IMG/VR virus record: IMGVR_UViG_2667527849_000003
Source: a virus
Lineage: Duplodnaviria; Heunggongvirae; Uroviricota; Caudoviricetes
Direction: 5' to 3' (one strand)
DNA length: 5,162 bases
Each line of letters begins with the position of its first letter. Position 1 is the first letter of the stretch. Below are positions 33-5,162 of this stretch, one piece after another. Both the position numbers and the translations under genes were made by a program. The notes under the pieces are model-generated. The model made no database searches. It was not told the origin of the DNA and saw only the letters and a program-made list of their open reading frames with translations.

Positions 33-2219
33 ATGGGTAAAGGCAGCAGTAAGGGGCATACCCCGCGCGAAGCGAAGGACAACCTGAAATCCACGCAGTT
101 GCTGAGTGTGATTGATGCCATCAGCGAAGGGCCGGTTGACGGTCCGGTGGATGGATTAAAAAGCGTGCTGCTGAACGGTACGCCGGTCCTGGACAGCGAG
201 GGGAAGACAAACTTTTCCGGTGTTACGGTGGTGTTCCGTGCAGGTGAGCAGGAGCAGACACCGCCGGAGGGTTTTGAATCCTCCGGCTCCGAGACGGTGC
301 TGGGTACGGAAGTGAAATATGACACGCCGATCACCCGGACCATCACGTCGGCAAACATTGACCGTCTGCGCTTTACCTTCGGTGTGCAGGCACTGGTGGA
401 AACCACCTCAAAGGGTGACCGGAATCCGTCGGAAGTCCGCCTGCTGGTTCAGATACAGCGTAACGGTGGCTGGGTGACGGAAAAAGACATCACCATTAAG
501 GGCAAAACCACTTCGCAGTATCTGGCCTCGGTGGTGGTGGGTAACCTGCCGCCGCGCCCGTTTAATATCCGGATGCGCAGAATGACGCCGGACAGCACCA
601 CAGACCAGCTGCAGAACAAAACGCTCTGGTCGTCATACACCGAAATCATCGATGTGAAACAGTGCTACCCGAACACGGCGCTGGTCGGCGTGCAGGTGGA
701 TTCAGAGCAGTTCGGTAACCAGCAGGTGAGTCGCAATTATCATCTTCGCGGGCGCATTCTGCAGGTGCCGTCGAACTATAACCCGCAGACGCGGCAATAC
801 AGCGGTATCTGGGACGGAACGTTTAAGCCAGCATACAGCAACAACATGGCCTGGTGTCTGTGGGACATGCTCACTCATCCGCGCTACGGCATGGGGAAAC
901 GTCTTGGTGCGGCAGATGTGGACAAATGGGCGCTGTATGTCATCGGCCAGTACTGCGACCAGTCAGTGACGGACGGATTTGGCGGCACGGAGCCGCGCAT
1001 CACCTGTAACTCTTACCTGACCACACAGCGTAAGGCGTGGGATGTTCTCAGTGATTTCTGCTCGGCGATGCGCTGTATGCCGGTATGGAACGGACAGATG
1101 CTGACGTTCGTGCAGGACCGACCGTCGGATAAGGTGTGGACCTATAACCGCAGTAATGTGGTGATGCCGGATGATGGTGCGCCGTTCCGCTACAGCTTCA
1201 GCGCCCTGAAGGACCGCCATAATGCCGTTGAGGTGAACTGGATTGACCCAGATAACGGCTGGGAGACGGCGACAGAGCTTGTGGAGGATACGCAGGCCAT
1301 TGCCCGTTACGGTCGTAATGTCACGAAGATGGATGCCTTTGGCTGTACCAGCCGGGGGCAGGCACACCGCGCCGGGCTGTGGCTGATTAAAACGGAACTG
1401 CTGGAAACGCAGACCGTGGACTTCAGCGTGGGCGCAGAAGGGCTTCGCCATGTACCGGGTGATGTCATTGAAATCTGCGATGATGATTATGCCGGTATCA
1501 GCACCGGTGGTCGCGTACTGGCGGTGAACAGCCAGACCCGGACGCTGACGCTCGACCGTGAAATCACGCTGCCATCCTCCGGCACCACGCTGATAAGCCT
1601 GGTTGACGGGCAGGGGAATCCGGTCAGCGTGGAGGTCCAGTCCGTCACCGACGGCGTGAAGGTAAAAGTGAGCCGTGTTCCTGACGGTGTTGCTGAATAC
1701 AGCGTGTGGGGGCTGAAGCTGCCGACGCTGCACCAGCGATTGTTCCGCTGCGTGAGTATCCGTGAGAACGACGACGGCACGTATGCCATCACCGCCGTGC
1801 AGCATGTGCCGGAAAAAGAGGCCATCGTGGATAACGGGGCACACTTTGACGGTGACCGGCGCGGCACGGTGAATGGTGTCACGCCGCCAGCGGTGCAGCA
1901 TCTGACCGCCGAAGTCACCGCAGACAGCGGGGAATATCAGGTGCTGGCGCGATGGGACACGCCGAAGGTGGTGAAGGGTGTGAGCTTCCTGCTTCGCCTG
2001 ACCGTGGCAGCGGACGACGGCAGTGAGCGGCTGGTCAGCACAGCCAGGACGACGGAAACCACATACCGCTTCAGGCAGCTGGCGCTGGGGAATTACAGTC
2101 TGACAGTCCGGGCGGTAAATGCCCGGGGGCAGCAGGGCGATCCGGCGTCGGTATCGTTCCGGATTGCGGAAATCCGGTCAGCGTGGAGGTTCAGTCCGTC
2201 ACCGACGGACTTAAGGTGA
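33..2219 (+). CDS. J: Lambda-type tail tip / host specificity protein J (gpJ), N-terminal fragment. J-homologous coding runs to about 2170, then the frame reads 49 nt out of frame through the duplication junction to a TGA at 2217..2219
   Basis: ATG at 33 with upstream purine-rich RBS. The translation begins [34 protein letters not shown], which I recognise as the N-terminus of phage lambda gpJ, and the ORF shows J-like sequence across ~712 codons. The tail [19 protein letters not shown] is the frame-shifted read of the second repeat copy. Strand + and frame 0 (33 mod 3). Confidence 0.85.
1617..2170 (+). repeat. Copy 1 of a 554-bp direct tandem duplication inside J
   Basis: aatccggtcagcgtggagg at 1617 recurs at 2171, and ggattgcgg at 2161..2169 recurs at 2715..2723. 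The constant offset of 554 was checked at the start, middle (cgtgagtatc at 1751 and 2305) and end. Encodes [18 protein letters not shown]...[10 protein letters not shown] in J frame. Confidence 0.9.
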
Positions 2220-2724
2220 AAGTGAACCGGGTTCCTGACGGCGTTGCAGAATACAGCGTGTGGGGGCTGAAGCTGCCGACGCTGCGCCAGCGTCTGTTCC
2301 GCTGCGTGAGTATCCGTGAGAACGACGACGGCACGTATGCCATCACCGCCGTGCAGCATGTGCCGGAAAAAGAAGCCATCGTGGATAACGGGGCGCGCTT
2401 TGACGGCGACCAGAGCGGCACGGTGAATGGTGTCACGCCGCCAGCGGTGCAGCACCTGACCGCCGAAGTCACCGCAGACAGTGGGGAATATCAGGTGCTG
2501 GCGCGATGGGACACGCCGAAGGTGGTGAAGGGTGTGAGCTTCCTGCTTCGCCTGACCGTGGCAGCGGACGACGGCAGTGAGCGGCTGGTCAGCACAGCCA
2601 GGACGACGGAAACCACATACCGCTTCAGGCAGCTGGCGCTGGGGAATTACAGTCTGACAGTCCGGGCGGTAAATGCCCGGGGGCAGCAGGGCGATCCGGC
2701 GTCGGTATCGTTCCGGATTGCGGC
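2171..2724 (+). repeat. Copy 2 of the 554-bp direct tandem duplication inside J (in frame +2 relative to copy 1)
   Basis: Same unit as 1617..2170 displaced by 554 bp. About 20 nucleotide substitutions against copy 1, all within the first ~312 bp (last difference near 2482); the remaining ~240 bp are identical. After 2723 the sequence continues caccggcagcgcctgtc (APAAPVTIE), the expected continuation of J. Confidence 0.9.
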
Positions 2725-4066
2725 ACCGGCAGCGCCTGTCACTATTGAACTGATACCGGGGTATTTTCAGATAACGGCGGTCCCGAAACTGGCTGTATAT
2801 GACCCGACGGTGCAGTTTGAGTTCTGGTTTTCGGAAAAGCGGATTGCGGATATCAGGCAGGTTGAAACCACAGCCCGCTATCTTGGTACGGCGCTGTACT
2901 GGATAGCCGCCAGTATCAATATCAGGCCGGGCCATGATTATTATTTTTACGTTCGCAGTGTGAACACCGTTGGCAAATCGGCATTTGTGGAGGCCATCGG
3001 TCGGGCGAGCGATGATGCAGAAGGTTATCTGAATTTTTATAAAGGGTTGATCAATAAAACGCATCTCGGCAAGGAGTTGTGGACGCAGATTGATAACGGT
3101 CAGCTTGCGCCGGACCTGACTGAAATCAGGACGTCCATTACGAATGTCAGCAATGAAATCACGCAAACCGTCAATAAAAAACTGGAAAATCAGAGTGCTG
3201 CAATCCAGCAGATACAGAAAGTTCAGGTTGATACAAATAATAACCTGAACAGCATGTGGGCTGTGAAGCTGCAACAGATGAAGGACGGACGCCTTTATAT
3301 TGCGGGTATCGGTGCCGGTATTGAGAATACGCCAGCAGGAATGCAGAGTCAGGTGCTGCTGGCGGCAGACAGGATTGCGATGATTAATCCTGCGAATGGC
3401 AACACAAAGCCGATGTTTGTTGGTCAGGGCGATCAGATATTCATGAACGACGTGTTCCTGAAATGCCTGACGGCTCCGACCATTACCAGCGGCGGTAATC
3501 CTCCGGCATTTTCCCTGACACCTGGCGGACGGCTGACGGCGAAAAATGCCGATATCAGCGGTAACGTGAACGCGAACTCCGGGACGCTCAACAACGTCAC
3601 GATTAATAAGAACTGTCGGGTTCTGGGAAAATTGTCCGCGAACCAGATTGAAGGCGATCTCGTTAAAACAGTGGGCAAACCTTTCCCACGGGACTCCCGG
3701 GCACCGGAGAGGTGGCCATCAGGGACCATTACCGTCAGGGTTTATGACGATCAGCCGTTTGATCGGCAAATTGTTATTCCCGCGGTGGCGTTTCGCGGTG
3801 CTAAACATGAGCGGAAGAATAACAATATTTATTCGTCATGCCGCCTGATAGTGAAGAAAAACGGTGCTGAAATTTATAACCGAACGACCCTGGATAATAC
3901 GCTGATATATACGGGTGTTATTGATATGCCTGCCGGTCACGGTCACATGACGCTGGAGTTTTCTGTATCGGCATGGCTGGTAAATGGCTGGTATCCCACA
4001 GCAAGTATCAGCGATTTGCTGGTTGTGGTGATGAAGAAAGCCACTGCAGGCATCACGATTAGCTGA
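2183..4066 (+). CDS. J: gpJ-like host specificity protein, C-terminal fragment: second copy of the duplicated segment, an FN3-like domain, and the C-terminal (receptor-binding) region. Possibly non-functional as a stand-alone gene
   Basis: ORF in frame +2 opening at GTG 2183, the first start codon in frame; there is no convincing RBS, so the true start is uncertain. Translation [19 protein letters not shown]... repeats the J segment and continues with J-like motifs ([47 protein letters not shown]) that I recall from lambda gpJ. Stop TGA at 4064..4066 is followed by a hairpin terminator. Confidence 0.75.
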
Positions 4067-4084: not shown

Positions 4085-4109
4085 GGGCACCAGAAATGGT
4101 GCCTTTTTT
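4085..4109 (+). terminator. Rho-independent terminator downstream of J (tJ-like)
   Basis: Stem ggcacc (4086..4091), loop agaaat, stem ggtgcc (4098..4103), then TTTTTT (4104..4109), 19 nt after the J stop codon. Confidence 0.6.
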
Positions 4110-4133: not shown

Positions 4134-4205
4134 ATGCGTAAAGTTTGTGCAGCCATTTTGTCCGCAGCCATTTGTCTGGCCGTATCCGGTGCGCCTGCAT
4201 GGGCG
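4134..4205 (+). other. Predicted Sec signal peptide of Lom (24 aa, cleavage after A-W-A)
   Basis: Basic N-terminus (MRK), hydrophobic core (VCAAILSAAICLAV), and AxA-type cleavage motif AWA followed by SEHQ. Confidence 0.6.
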
Positions 4206-4733
4206 TCTGAACATCAGTCCACGCTGAGCGCCGGGTATCTTCAGACCCATACTGATATGCCAGGCAGCGATGACCTGAAGGGCATTAACGTGAAATACCG
4301 TTATGAGTTTACGGACACGCTGGGGCTGATTACGTCATTCAGTTATGCCAACGCTGAAGATGAGCAAAAAACGCATTACAGCGATACCCGCTGGCATGAG
4401 GATTCCGTGCGTAACCGCTGGTTCAGCGTGATGGCGGGGCCGTCTGTGCGCGTGAATGAATGGTTCAGCGCGTATGCGATGGCGGGTGTGGCTTACAGCC
4501 GTGTGTCGACTTTCTCCGGGGATTATCTTCGCGTAACTGACAACAAGGGGAAAACGCACGATGTGCTGACCGGAAGTGATGGCGGTCGCCACAGCAACAC
4601 GTCTCTGGCGTGGGGAGCTGGCGTGCAGTTTAACCCGACCGAATCCGTGGCCATTGACCTTGCTTATGAAGGTTCCGGCAGTGGTGACTGGCGCACTGAC
4701 GGTTTCATCGTGGGTGTCGGTTATAAATTCTGA
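4134..4733 (+). CDS. lom: Lom-family outer membrane protein (Ail/Lom/PagC/OmpX-type 8-stranded beta-barrel), phage-borne lysogenic-conversion 'moron' gene
   Basis: 199-aa ORF with ATG start and good RBS. N-terminal Sec-type signal peptide MRKVCAAILSAAICLAVSGAPAWA. C-terminus YEGSGSGDWRTDGFIVGVGYKF ends in a terminal Phe, and the alternating hydrophobic pattern is typical of outer-membrane beta-barrels. This C-terminal block matches lambda Lom as I recall it, and the position directly downstream of J matches lambda gene order. Confidence 0.9.
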   Translation: MRKVCAAILSAAICLAVSGAPAWASEHQSTLSAGYLQTHTDMPGSDDLKGINVKYRYEFTDTLGLITSFSYANAEDEQKTHYSDTRWHEDSVRNRWFSVMAGPSVRVNEWFSAYAMAGVAYSRVSTFSGDYLRVTDNKGKTHDVLTGSDGGRHSNTSLAWGAGVQFNPTESVAIDLAYEGSGSGDWRTDGFIVGVGYKF

Positions 4734-4760
4734 TTAGCCAGGTAACACAGTGTTATGACA

Positions 4761-4786
4761 GCCCGCCGGTTCAGGCGGGCTTTTTT
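4761..4786 (+). terminator. Rho-independent terminator downstream of lom
   Basis: Perfect 7-bp GC-rich stem gcccgcc (4761..4767), loop ggttca, stem ggcgggc (4774..4780), followed by TTTTTT (4781..4786), 28 nt after the lom stop. Confidence 0.75.
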
Positions 4787-4797
4787 GTGGGGTGAAT

Positions 4798-5124
4798 ATG
4801 GCAGTAAAGATTTCAGGTGTACTGAAAGATGGGGCGGGTAAACCTGTCGTAAATTGTGCGATTGAACTGCGGGCCAGAAGAACCAGTCCGACCGTTGTGG
4901 CACACGTTGTTGCCACTTGCGTGACGGACAATAACGGTGCTTATGTGATTGAGGCTGAGCCGGGGTATTACGAGGTTGCGCTTCACTGTAACGGCTGGCA
5001 GCCAACCCGTGTCGGGGATATTGATGTGGCACCGACTGATGCACCGGGGACACTGAACGCGTTTCTGAATGCACCAAAGGATGGTGATTTACGTCCGGAG
5101 GTGATGAAGTGTCAGCGCCAGTGA
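4798..5124 (+). CDS. stf: Side tail fibre protein (Stf-like) N-terminal domain; ORF of only 109 codons, probably a truncated remnant or disrupted gene
   Basis: ATG at 4798 with GGGG 5 nt upstream, preferred over the GTG at 4792 that the ORF track uses. Translation MAVKISGVLKDGAGKPVVNC...PGTLNAFL...RPE resembles the conserved N-terminus of lambda Stf as I recall it (MAVKISGVLKDG...), and lies downstream of lom as in lambda. Stop TGA at 5122..5124. Confidence 0.6.
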   Translation: MAVKISGVLKDGAGKPVVNCAIELRARRTSPTVVAHVVATCVTDNNGAYVIEAEPGYYEVALHCNGWQPTRVGDIDVAPTDAPGTLNAFLNAPKDGDLRPEVMKCQRQ

Positions 5125-5162
5125 TATAAGACGGTAATTCGCCATTTGGATTGTCCGCTCCA

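Follow-up and report, generated by a model that had tools for sequence, protein, structure and literature searches.

A frameshifted J gene in a Shigella sonnei prophage remnant

The stretch of DNA analysed here (the window) is the entire 5162-bp contig CXFS01000212.1 of the draft S. sonnei assembly GCA_001254135.1 and holds the end of a defective lambda-like prophage of Shigella sonnei, with the genes J, lom and stf. All features described below lie on the plus strand. The J gene, encoding the tail-tip attachment protein, is interrupted by a head-to-tail tandem repeat of 554 nt (copy 1, 1616-2169; copy 2, 2170-2723) that covers J residues ~529-712, comprising the end of the hub region and the first Ig-like/FNIII domain. 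The N-terminal ORF (33-2219, 728 aa) carries Pfam domains FNIII-A_GpJ, Phage-tail_3 and Ig_J, crosses copy 1, loses the J frame at the junction and terminates after 16 junk codons. The C-terminal ORF (2183-4066) is in the true J frame from copy 2 on and carries Ig_J, Ig_J_second, Phage_Tail_Tip and Ig_GpJ_C; the depositor's gene call for it starts at 2216 and yields a 616-aa product (CST61762.1) that is recorded on one contig only. All J domain matches in both ORFs exceed the Pfam curated cut-offs, and a single-copy S. sonnei J orthologue with ~99% DNA identity to the window matches chain J of PDB entry 8iyk with E = 0 and 2138 bits. Downstream of J lie lom (4134-4733), encoding an Ail/Lom outer-membrane protein identical to the Lom of complete S. 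sonnei genomes, and an N-terminal fragment of the side tail fibre gene stf (4798-5124) that is cut by an IS3-family element, the end of which occupies ~5100-5162.

Because the repeat period (554 = 3 x 184 + 2) is not divisible by three, J is split into two ORFs in different frames, copy 2 being out of frame with respect to the upstream J reading frame, and the window lacks a single uninterrupted frame for the entire protein. J as written is a frameshifted pseudogene. Both the indivisibility of the period with its consequence for the frame and the fact that the window is one whole draft contig had been missed in the initial annotation.

Compared with ten complete-genome loci, the window shows 98.7-99.1% identity and the same IS junction (e.g., CP019689, strain 75/02), and all ten of these S. 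sonnei-type loci carry a single intact J of 1159 aa in which the unit is present once. The tail genes of the related loci are immediately preceded by IS elements, and the called genes shown there include no head-gene family. The domain order FNIII-A_GpJ, Phage-tail_3, Ig_J, Ig_J_second, Phage_Tail_Tip, Ig_GpJ_C is that of lambda gpJ (PDB 8iyk, 8k35, 8xcg), and the neighbours are alike, with tail assembly protein I upstream and lom and stf downstream. Unlike lambda, however, the window belongs to a prophage remnant and its J doubles residues ~529-712 with the second copy out of frame, making a full-length J impossible. The IS3-family cut in stf, the IS-flanked tail module seen in the related complete genomes and the dead J resemble Shigella prophage remnants with IS-driven pseudogenes, except that J is here inactivated by a frameshifting tandem repeat and not by IS insertion or deletion.

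One whole Ig_J domain lies inside the repeat unit, and phage structural proteins are known to gain Ig-like domains in frame. A functional variant could be imagined in which the duplicated domain lengthens the tail tip, expressed either as two polypeptides or through programmed frameshifting. We consider this vanishingly unlikely, as the first ORF ends in junk codons, the prophage is a remnant with IS elements upstream of its tail genes, no head-gene family shown in the related loci and an IS-cut stf, and the arrangement occurs in no other genome among E. coli, species-representative, IMG/VR and JGI metagenome sequences. A functional in-frame domain duplication was rejected on account of the broken frame.

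Distribution of differences between the repeat copies

The two copies abut without a spacer, as seen in a self-comparison at offset 554 and in agreement with an independent repeat search; Tandem Repeats Finder, which has a maximum period of 500, is blind to a 554-nt repeat and gave no output. Copies 1 and 2 differ by 20 mismatches, all within 1637-1928 in copy-1 numbering (1637, 1655, 1656, 1658, 1664, 1672, 1676, 1688, 1694, 1732, 1739, 1740, 1820, 1841, 1843, 1853, 1858, 1860, 1901 and 1928), and besides these 20 sites the boundary base differs (G at 1616, A at 2170). The remaining 241 nt of each copy (1929-2169 and 2483-2723) align with 0 mismatches, and the copy-1 block, which holds the Ig_J domain core, is exactly that of the S. 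sonnei type and of alleles L003, L007, L008, L009 and L012. The initial annotation had reported about 20 clustered differences followed by ~240 identical bp, an estimate that precise alignment bears out, and the two pairs of example strings it quoted are located at 1653-1676/2207-2230 and 1856-1865/2410-2419. Confinement of all 20 differences to the first 312 of 553 positions has an exact probability of P = 8.1e-6, and a stretch of 241 nt or more without any difference, wherever located, had P ~2e-4 in 200,000 random placements. The six residue changes listed earlier (V/L, S/N, H/R, H/R, R/Q, R/S) were recovered as V542L, S547N, H567R, H604R, R609Q and R610S. Third codon positions hold 13 of the 20 differences and a residue is altered in just six codons, despite copy 2 now being out of frame.

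Both states at 19 of the 20 sites are present among 108 distinct J alleles. Measured against these alleles, the window differs by a median of 16 positions over the 3' 241 nt and of 15-17 over the 5' 312 nt; with the 3' block no less variable in the population than the divergent 5' block, conservation is not the cause of the identical block and was rejected as an explanation.

A history in which a simple duplication decayed at random while chance, selection or homogenisation left the 3' 241 nt identical would account for the bare fact that the copies differ. This history is highly improbable, being contradicted by the clustering (P = 8e-6), by the pre-existence of 19 of the 20 variants in other alleles as linked haplotypes, by a third-position bias that follows the J frame though copy 2 is out of frame, and by the equal polymorphism of the two blocks. 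Moreover, 6.4% divergence does not fit a repeat private to one isolate, when other S. sonnei genomes differ mutually by 0-1 nt over 4.6 kb here. The earlier dismissal of evenly spread decay therefore stands, both states being standing polymorphisms at 19 of 20 sites.

Allelic origin of the patches

Judged from the allele comparisons, the differences between the copies are imported allelic variation and not post-duplication decay, and both copies are built on one S. sonnei-type backbone, also inside the divergent half. In copy 1 and its upstream flank, a foreign tract at 1574-1740 carries 14 consecutive informative sites of the L022 allele group; it is bracketed by backbone-type sites at 1517 and 1820, the closest on each side, and starts upstream of the repeat. 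Copy 2 contains two foreign tracts. The first, at 2191-2226 (equivalent to 1637-1672), bears an 'ACT' haplotype of the L093/L094/L039 group, and the second, at 2374-2482 (1820-1928), is L121/L039-like. Between them lies a core at 2227-2373 (1673-1819) that equals the S. sonnei type, including a rare T at 2293 (1739). A triplet test on copy 2 gave the pattern BBBBB AAA BBBBBB followed by 16 A, where A is the S. sonnei type and B the L093 type; the mosaic pattern is significant by max-chi-square permutation (p = 2e-4), and greedy tiling with known alleles produced the same segments as the triplet tests. The G at 2397 (1843) is found in no other allele, and the A at 2170 is absent at the equivalent site in all 108 alleles, so that both bases unmatched in any other allele fall within copy 2. 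The remaining 21 window differences from the S. sonnei type all have states that are also present in other alleles.

This picture only partly agrees with the proposal of two diverged J alleles recombining. Allelic import is upheld, and alignment to other J alleles places the divergent copy 2 sites with L093/L039, the copy 1 sites at 1616-1740 with L022 and the 3' block with the S. sonnei type. The two 5' halves do not, however, represent allele A against allele B, as they share a backbone, which copy 2 follows throughout 1673-1819. This core, together with the copy-1 tract starting at 1574, led us to reject a clean two-parent scheme that assigns each 5' half entirely to a single allele. Nor does the block pattern mark the repeat as such, because the whole window is patchy in the same manner against its closest relatives. 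Further S. sonnei J proteins carry patches of other kinds; one of them, P0009, comes from a 4.9-Mb contig.

Exact matches to the 5' blocks were absent from the E. coli genomes, the best reaching 97.4% for copy 1 and 98.7% for copy 2. Strings specific to copy 2 (the G2397 context and a 94-mer linking the ACT haplotype to T1739) were absent from IMG/VR, and a protein search with copy 2 returned short partial J fragments only, with no exact match.

Possible origins: recombination between J copies or false duplication in assembly

The mosaic repeat would be the product of ordinary prophage recombination, or possibly of an assembly error. We lean towards a real out-of-register recombination between J copies. 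Both copies would have descended from S. sonnei-type J sequence, and short stretches (~40-300 nt) of other J alleles would have entered their 5' halves via homologous exchange between J copies, an L022-like tract (1574-1740) going into copy 1 and L093/L039-like sequence (at 1637-1672 and 1820-1928) into copy 2. The most economical real history would be a single out-of-register exchange or template switch between two non-identical J copies of one cell, which would have fused 2169 of the first to 1616 of the other where the backbone allele has a short GGCA microhomology, and would then have come back into register within the shared 3' block; the resulting head-to-tail repeat would shift the frame and inactivate J. 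What the sequence shows is the build of the repeat, the frameshift and the derivation of the differences from other alleles; we infer which alleles were the donors, how many events took place and that they happened in a cell.

The junction (2166-2175) reads GCGG|A|AATCC, with the A at 2170 unlike both flanks, and the junction identity in the window is GG (2 nt). In the S. sonnei-type backbone allele, GGCA (4 nt) stands at both repeat boundaries, and a join identity of at least 4 nt occurs in merely 1.3% of period-554 registers; this rarity was counted in favour of a real event. Counted against it were the GGAA observed where the microhomology predicts GGCA, the junction being known from one contig alone, and the exact copy 2 haplotype not being found elsewhere in E. 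coli genomes or IMG/VR. The junction was absent from 5,426 complete E. coli genomes, in which a megablast of 2090-2250 gave two-piece, single-copy matches only, and from species-representative genomes, where the sole match of an exact-pattern scan was an unrelated Rhodobacter sequence; scans of IMG/VR and JGI metagenomes gave no matches elsewhere. S. sonnei is highly clonal, and several conversion events private to one isolate are therefore unexpected.

The duplication, the foreign patch and the unmatched bases at 2170 and 2397 would all arise together from a single copy-choice event. In this version, a strand leaving J at 2169 would re-prime at the 4-nt microhomology on a second, non-identical J ~550 nt upstream of its register, copy ~330 nt and return in register to the original template, all in one error-prone step. 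We regard this specific version as rather unlikely.

In favour of exchange between J copies in general, one S. sonnei chromosome can hold the tail module twice (L087). There is also precedent in the mosaics of temperate and defective phages, which have median lengths of 404-494 bp and in which exchange involves small fragments of genes more frequently than complete modules (De Paepe et al. 2014, PMC3945230). As in the window, the imported intragenic stretches measure from tens up to a few hundred nt, the setting is a defective prophage and the flanks are of lower yet still high identity. They differ in that the window patches sit on two intragenic repeat copies with inferred donors, whereas that study describes no out-of-register products.

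The chimeric assembly that the initial annotation had offered as an alternative is possibly the explanation and stays a live one, the window being a single short contig from a draft assembly. According to this reading, the isolate has one intact J here and at least one J-like copy elsewhere; overlapping contig ends carrying paralogue-specific differences were left unmerged, placed head to tail and the join closed, so that the patchwork would wholly or partly be a mixture of paralogue reads. We rate such a false duplication as quite possible, if somewhat short of even chances. The single-copy intact J in all ten complete-genome loci, the uniqueness of the junction and of the copy 2 haplotype, and the position of both allele-unmatched bases (2170 and 2397) in copy 2 are consistent with it. 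J is also multi-copy, E. coli genomes having it at a median of 3 places, and draft assemblies often leave the repeat region as an isolated contig of 0.5-1 kb or at the end of a contig. GCA_001254135.1 was presumably made with the Velvet, SSPACE and GapFiller pipeline, the public assemblies used in assessing it including 299 of S. sonnei (mean 405 contigs), and its authors state that such greedy tools can create false joins (PMC5320598). Variants in tandem on one scaffold have furthermore been described as the hallmark of false 'heterotype' duplications (Ko et al. 2022, PMC9516828), which like the window place slightly different versions side by side, are missing from better assemblies and have copies differing at variant-specific sites. 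Those cases concern diploid haplotypes and usually show a gap or a depth gap, whereas the window would involve paralogous prophage genes in a haploid bacterium and is gapless.

Several features of the join itself speak against an assembly error. The contig contains no N, at the join or elsewhere, and the sequences meeting at the junction have just 2-4 nt in common, when crossing in a de Bruijn graph requires real k-mers and GapFiller closure requires an overlap of ~10 nt or more (PMC3446322). Given these needs, no concrete assembly route to the junction could be reconstructed. The GGCA microhomology in the backbone allele is, moreover, what a real illegitimate join predicts.

Beyond record IMGVR_UViG_2667527849_000003 the case itself has little importance. 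If the repeat is an artefact, it illustrates that short-read drafts can render paralogous prophage genes as apparent tandem duplications and false pseudogenes, affecting pseudogene counts and recombination scans on such assemblies. If it is real, it would be a further example of multi-copy lambdoid tail genes that swap short segments while decaying in Shigella, and were the copy-choice version true, it would represent a natural ectopic template switch between prophage paralogues that generated a structural variant and a conversion tract together.

Gene content and closest relatives

The plus strand of the window carries a lambda-type tail end (J, lom and the 5' part of stf); in related records the tape measure gene, M, L, K and I lie upstream of J, and lom and stf downstream. 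J starts at 33 and is split into two ORFs (33-2219 and 2183-4066), which between them hold the Pfam domains FNIII-A_GpJ, Phage-tail_3, Ig_J, Ig_J_second, Phage_Tail_Tip and Ig_GpJ_C. It is followed on the same strand by lom (4134-4733) and then by stf, the side tail fibre gene, which keeps its first 108 codons (4798-5124) and is truncated by the end of an IS3-family element (about 5100-5162). The single-copy orthologue of the window's J matches lambda gpJ (solved structure 8iyk) with E = 0. By domain architecture, sequence and synteny J is a member of the lambda gpJ family, but the window's J lacks an intact frame. Terminator-like hairpins with T runs lie after J (4085-4104) and after lom (4760-4781), the second T run being 1 T longer at its start (position 4781) than in the S-type allele, the single-copy J allele of the relatives described below. 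IS3-family transposase regions of E. coli match the IS end at 93.8-95.2% identity, and one of these matches is annotated as IS1397-like.

The window spans the full 5162 bp of contig CXFS01000212.1, from the draft S. sonnei assembly GCA_001254135.1, and is not a slice of a chromosome. It begins 32 nt ahead of the J start codon and ends inside the IS, both places where repeat-induced contig breaks would be expected. Its Lom protein is identical to that of ten loci on about 4.8-Mb IS-rich chromosomes, among them CP019689 of S. sonnei strain 75/02. These S-type loci share the stf/IS junction, are 98.7-99.1% identical to the window through that junction to the window end, differ among themselves by 0-1 nt over 4.6 kb and hold a single copy of the repeat unit within an intact 1159-aa J. 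In the CP019689 locus (L087) the whole tail module (M, L, K, I, J, lom) occurs twice in tandem (3686-11028 and 13103-20445, 9417 bp apart with an IS between), with 0 differences over the 4.6 kb compared, indicating that S. sonnei can hold a second J copy as exchange partner.

Anatomy of the repeat and the reading frame of J

Comparison of every base with the base 554 nt downstream placed copy 1 at 1616-2169 and copy 2 at 2170-2723. The 20 mismatches between them all fall within 1637-1928, the boundary base also differs (G at 1616, A at 2170), and the last 241 nt contain 0 mismatches, exactly the pattern of early divergence and identical 3' ends reported in the initial annotation, whose quoted strings and six residue changes (V542L, S547N, H567R, H604R, R609Q and R610S) are likewise correct. 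Such clustering is improbable by chance, both for all 20 differences falling in the first 312 of 553 positions (P = 8e-6) and for a stretch of 241 nt or more, at any place in the unit, without a difference (P about 2e-4).

The initial annotation missed both the single-contig nature of the window and the frameshift. The period of 554 (3 x 184 + 2) does not divide by 3, so the repeat breaks J into two ORFs that overlap in different frames: ORF 1 remains in the J frame from 33 through copy 1, loses it where the copies join and ends at 2219, 16 out-of-frame junk codons further on, while the true J frame picks up again as ORF 2 at 2183. As written, J is a frameshifted pseudogene. The product from the GTG at 2216 (616 aa; CST61762.1, 'host specificity protein [Shigella sonnei]') is on record for a single contig, CXFS01000212.1; negative results of the exact look-up call for caution, since ORF 33-2219 came back as not on record yet is called as a gene of this contig. 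A 24-nt string of the repeat, ACAGCGTGTGGGGGCTGAAGCTGC (at 1699 and 2253), has a third copy, 83% identical, at 3249-3272 in distal J (peptides SVWGLKL versus SMWAVKL), a likeness that may reflect chance or weak internal similarity.

Allelic origin of the differences

The two copies were compared with 108 distinct unit sequences from 171 J loci (IMG/VR, E. coli genomes and S. sonnei-type loci). Both states are known from other alleles at 19 of the 20 differing sites, the only private state being copy 2's G at 1843 in copy-1 numbering (window 2397); the A at the site equivalent to 2170 occurs in 0 of the 108. Third codon positions of the J frame take 13 of the 20 differences and only six codons alter the residue, even though copy 2 no longer lies in frame; the variants therefore arose in working genes. 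The median allele distance from the window is 16/241 nt in the identical 3' block and 15-17/312 nt in the 5' block, which rules out unusual conservation of the former. With the states pre-existing, the third-position bias and an unexceptional 3' block, random decay is rejected.

Copy 1 and its flanks on either side (1300-2700, collapsed numbering) were scored for likeness to the S type or to the L022 group of J alleles. The S-type state is present at 107 informative sites and the L022-type state in a single unbroken run of 14 sites (1574-1740), which begins 42 nt upstream of the repeat boundary; the nearest S-type sites on the two sides are 1517 and 1820. For copy 2, in copy-1 numbering, the comparison was with the S type and with L093, the allele of E. 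coli 06-00048 and the best match to this copy among E. coli genomes (98.7%). Here the informative sites are L093-type over 1637-1672 and again over 1820-1901, and S-type over 1739-1808 and, without exception, over 1952-2168 (16 sites); the maximum chi-square breakpoint lies between 1901 and 1952 (permutation p = 2e-4). T at 1739 is an S-type marker carried only by the ten S. sonnei-type loci and one further allele, L082; C stands at 1739 in every one of the 20 distinct alleles that have 'ACT' as their haplotype at 1655-1658. Both copies therefore have the S type as their common backbone, and on it lie three or more short stretches of foreign sequence, derived from two or more donor types. The differences are thus clustered and their linked haplotypes already exist in other alleles; the proposed recombination between J alleles holds as to allelic origin, but the structure goes beyond the two alleles envisaged.

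Nor is the mosaic peculiar to the repeat. Outside it the window differs from the S type at 21 more single bases (359-1370, 2871-2887 and 4172-4781, several clustered), and all 21 states are present in other J/lom alleles, which gives the entire locus the look of a recombination patchwork. Different patches occur in further J proteins of S. sonnei: P0009 (1159 aa, from a 4.9-Mb contig) carries a foreign one at residues about 697-745, just past the repeat region (e.g., PVTIELIPG to LSRIELTPG), and has Ser6 and ETTARYLG in common with the window. The intragenic tracts are of the size exchanged among temperate and defective phages, where segments have a median of 404-494 bp and small fragments move more often than whole modules (De Paepe et al., PMC3945230).

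Cellular event or assembly error

The junction reads GCGG-A-AATCC, and in the window's own sequence the identity between the two boundaries is limited to GG. The S-type allele has GGCA at both (1614-1617 and 2168-2171), an identity found at only 1.3% of period-554 registers in J, and the observed GGAA is one base off the GGCA expected from it. Microhomology of this kind in the backbone allele is to be expected of an illegitimate join, and we lean slightly towards a real event in the cell. A de Bruijn assembler needs reads across a join to write one whose sides share 2-4 nt, GapFiller closes a gap only where roughly 10 nt or more overlap (PMC3446322), the contig contains no N, and the double module of L087 would supply a partner J. 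If the event is real, one exchange or template switch out of register, between J copies that are not identical, would be a more economical history than a duplication plus several independent conversions.

The caveat of a chimeric assembly was also well placed, the probability of an artefact being a little short of even. S. sonnei is a highly clonal species, and several private conversions following a private duplication would be surprising. The repeat is known from one draft contig, complete-genome loci being single-copy in 10/10, and both unmatched bases (2170 and 2397) lie in copy 2. A search of 5,426 complete E. coli genomes gave two-piece, single-copy matches throughout and no junction, and the junction was likewise missing from IMG/VR and JGI metagenomes; among species-representative genomes the sole match was an unrelated Rhodobacter sequence. 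J is multi-copy (median 3 places per E. coli genome), and drafts often break in it or yield orphan 0.5-1 kb contigs of the same Ig_J region, which is a habitual assembly breakpoint. Very many such contigs, encoding only the Ig_J part, come from E. coli, Shigella and Salmonella drafts (proteins P0016-P0128), in clusters of up to 5273 member sequences. Page et al. assessed their own Velvet, SSPACE and GapFiller pipeline on public assemblies, including 299 of S. sonnei, and warned of false joins (PMC5320598); GCA_001254135.1 is, we infer, a product of it. False 'heterotype' duplications, too, are described as recognisable by two variants in tandem (PMC9516828). The case is either an assembly error or an undescribed yet ordinary example of processes already known, and on either reading the repeat is of little wider interest.
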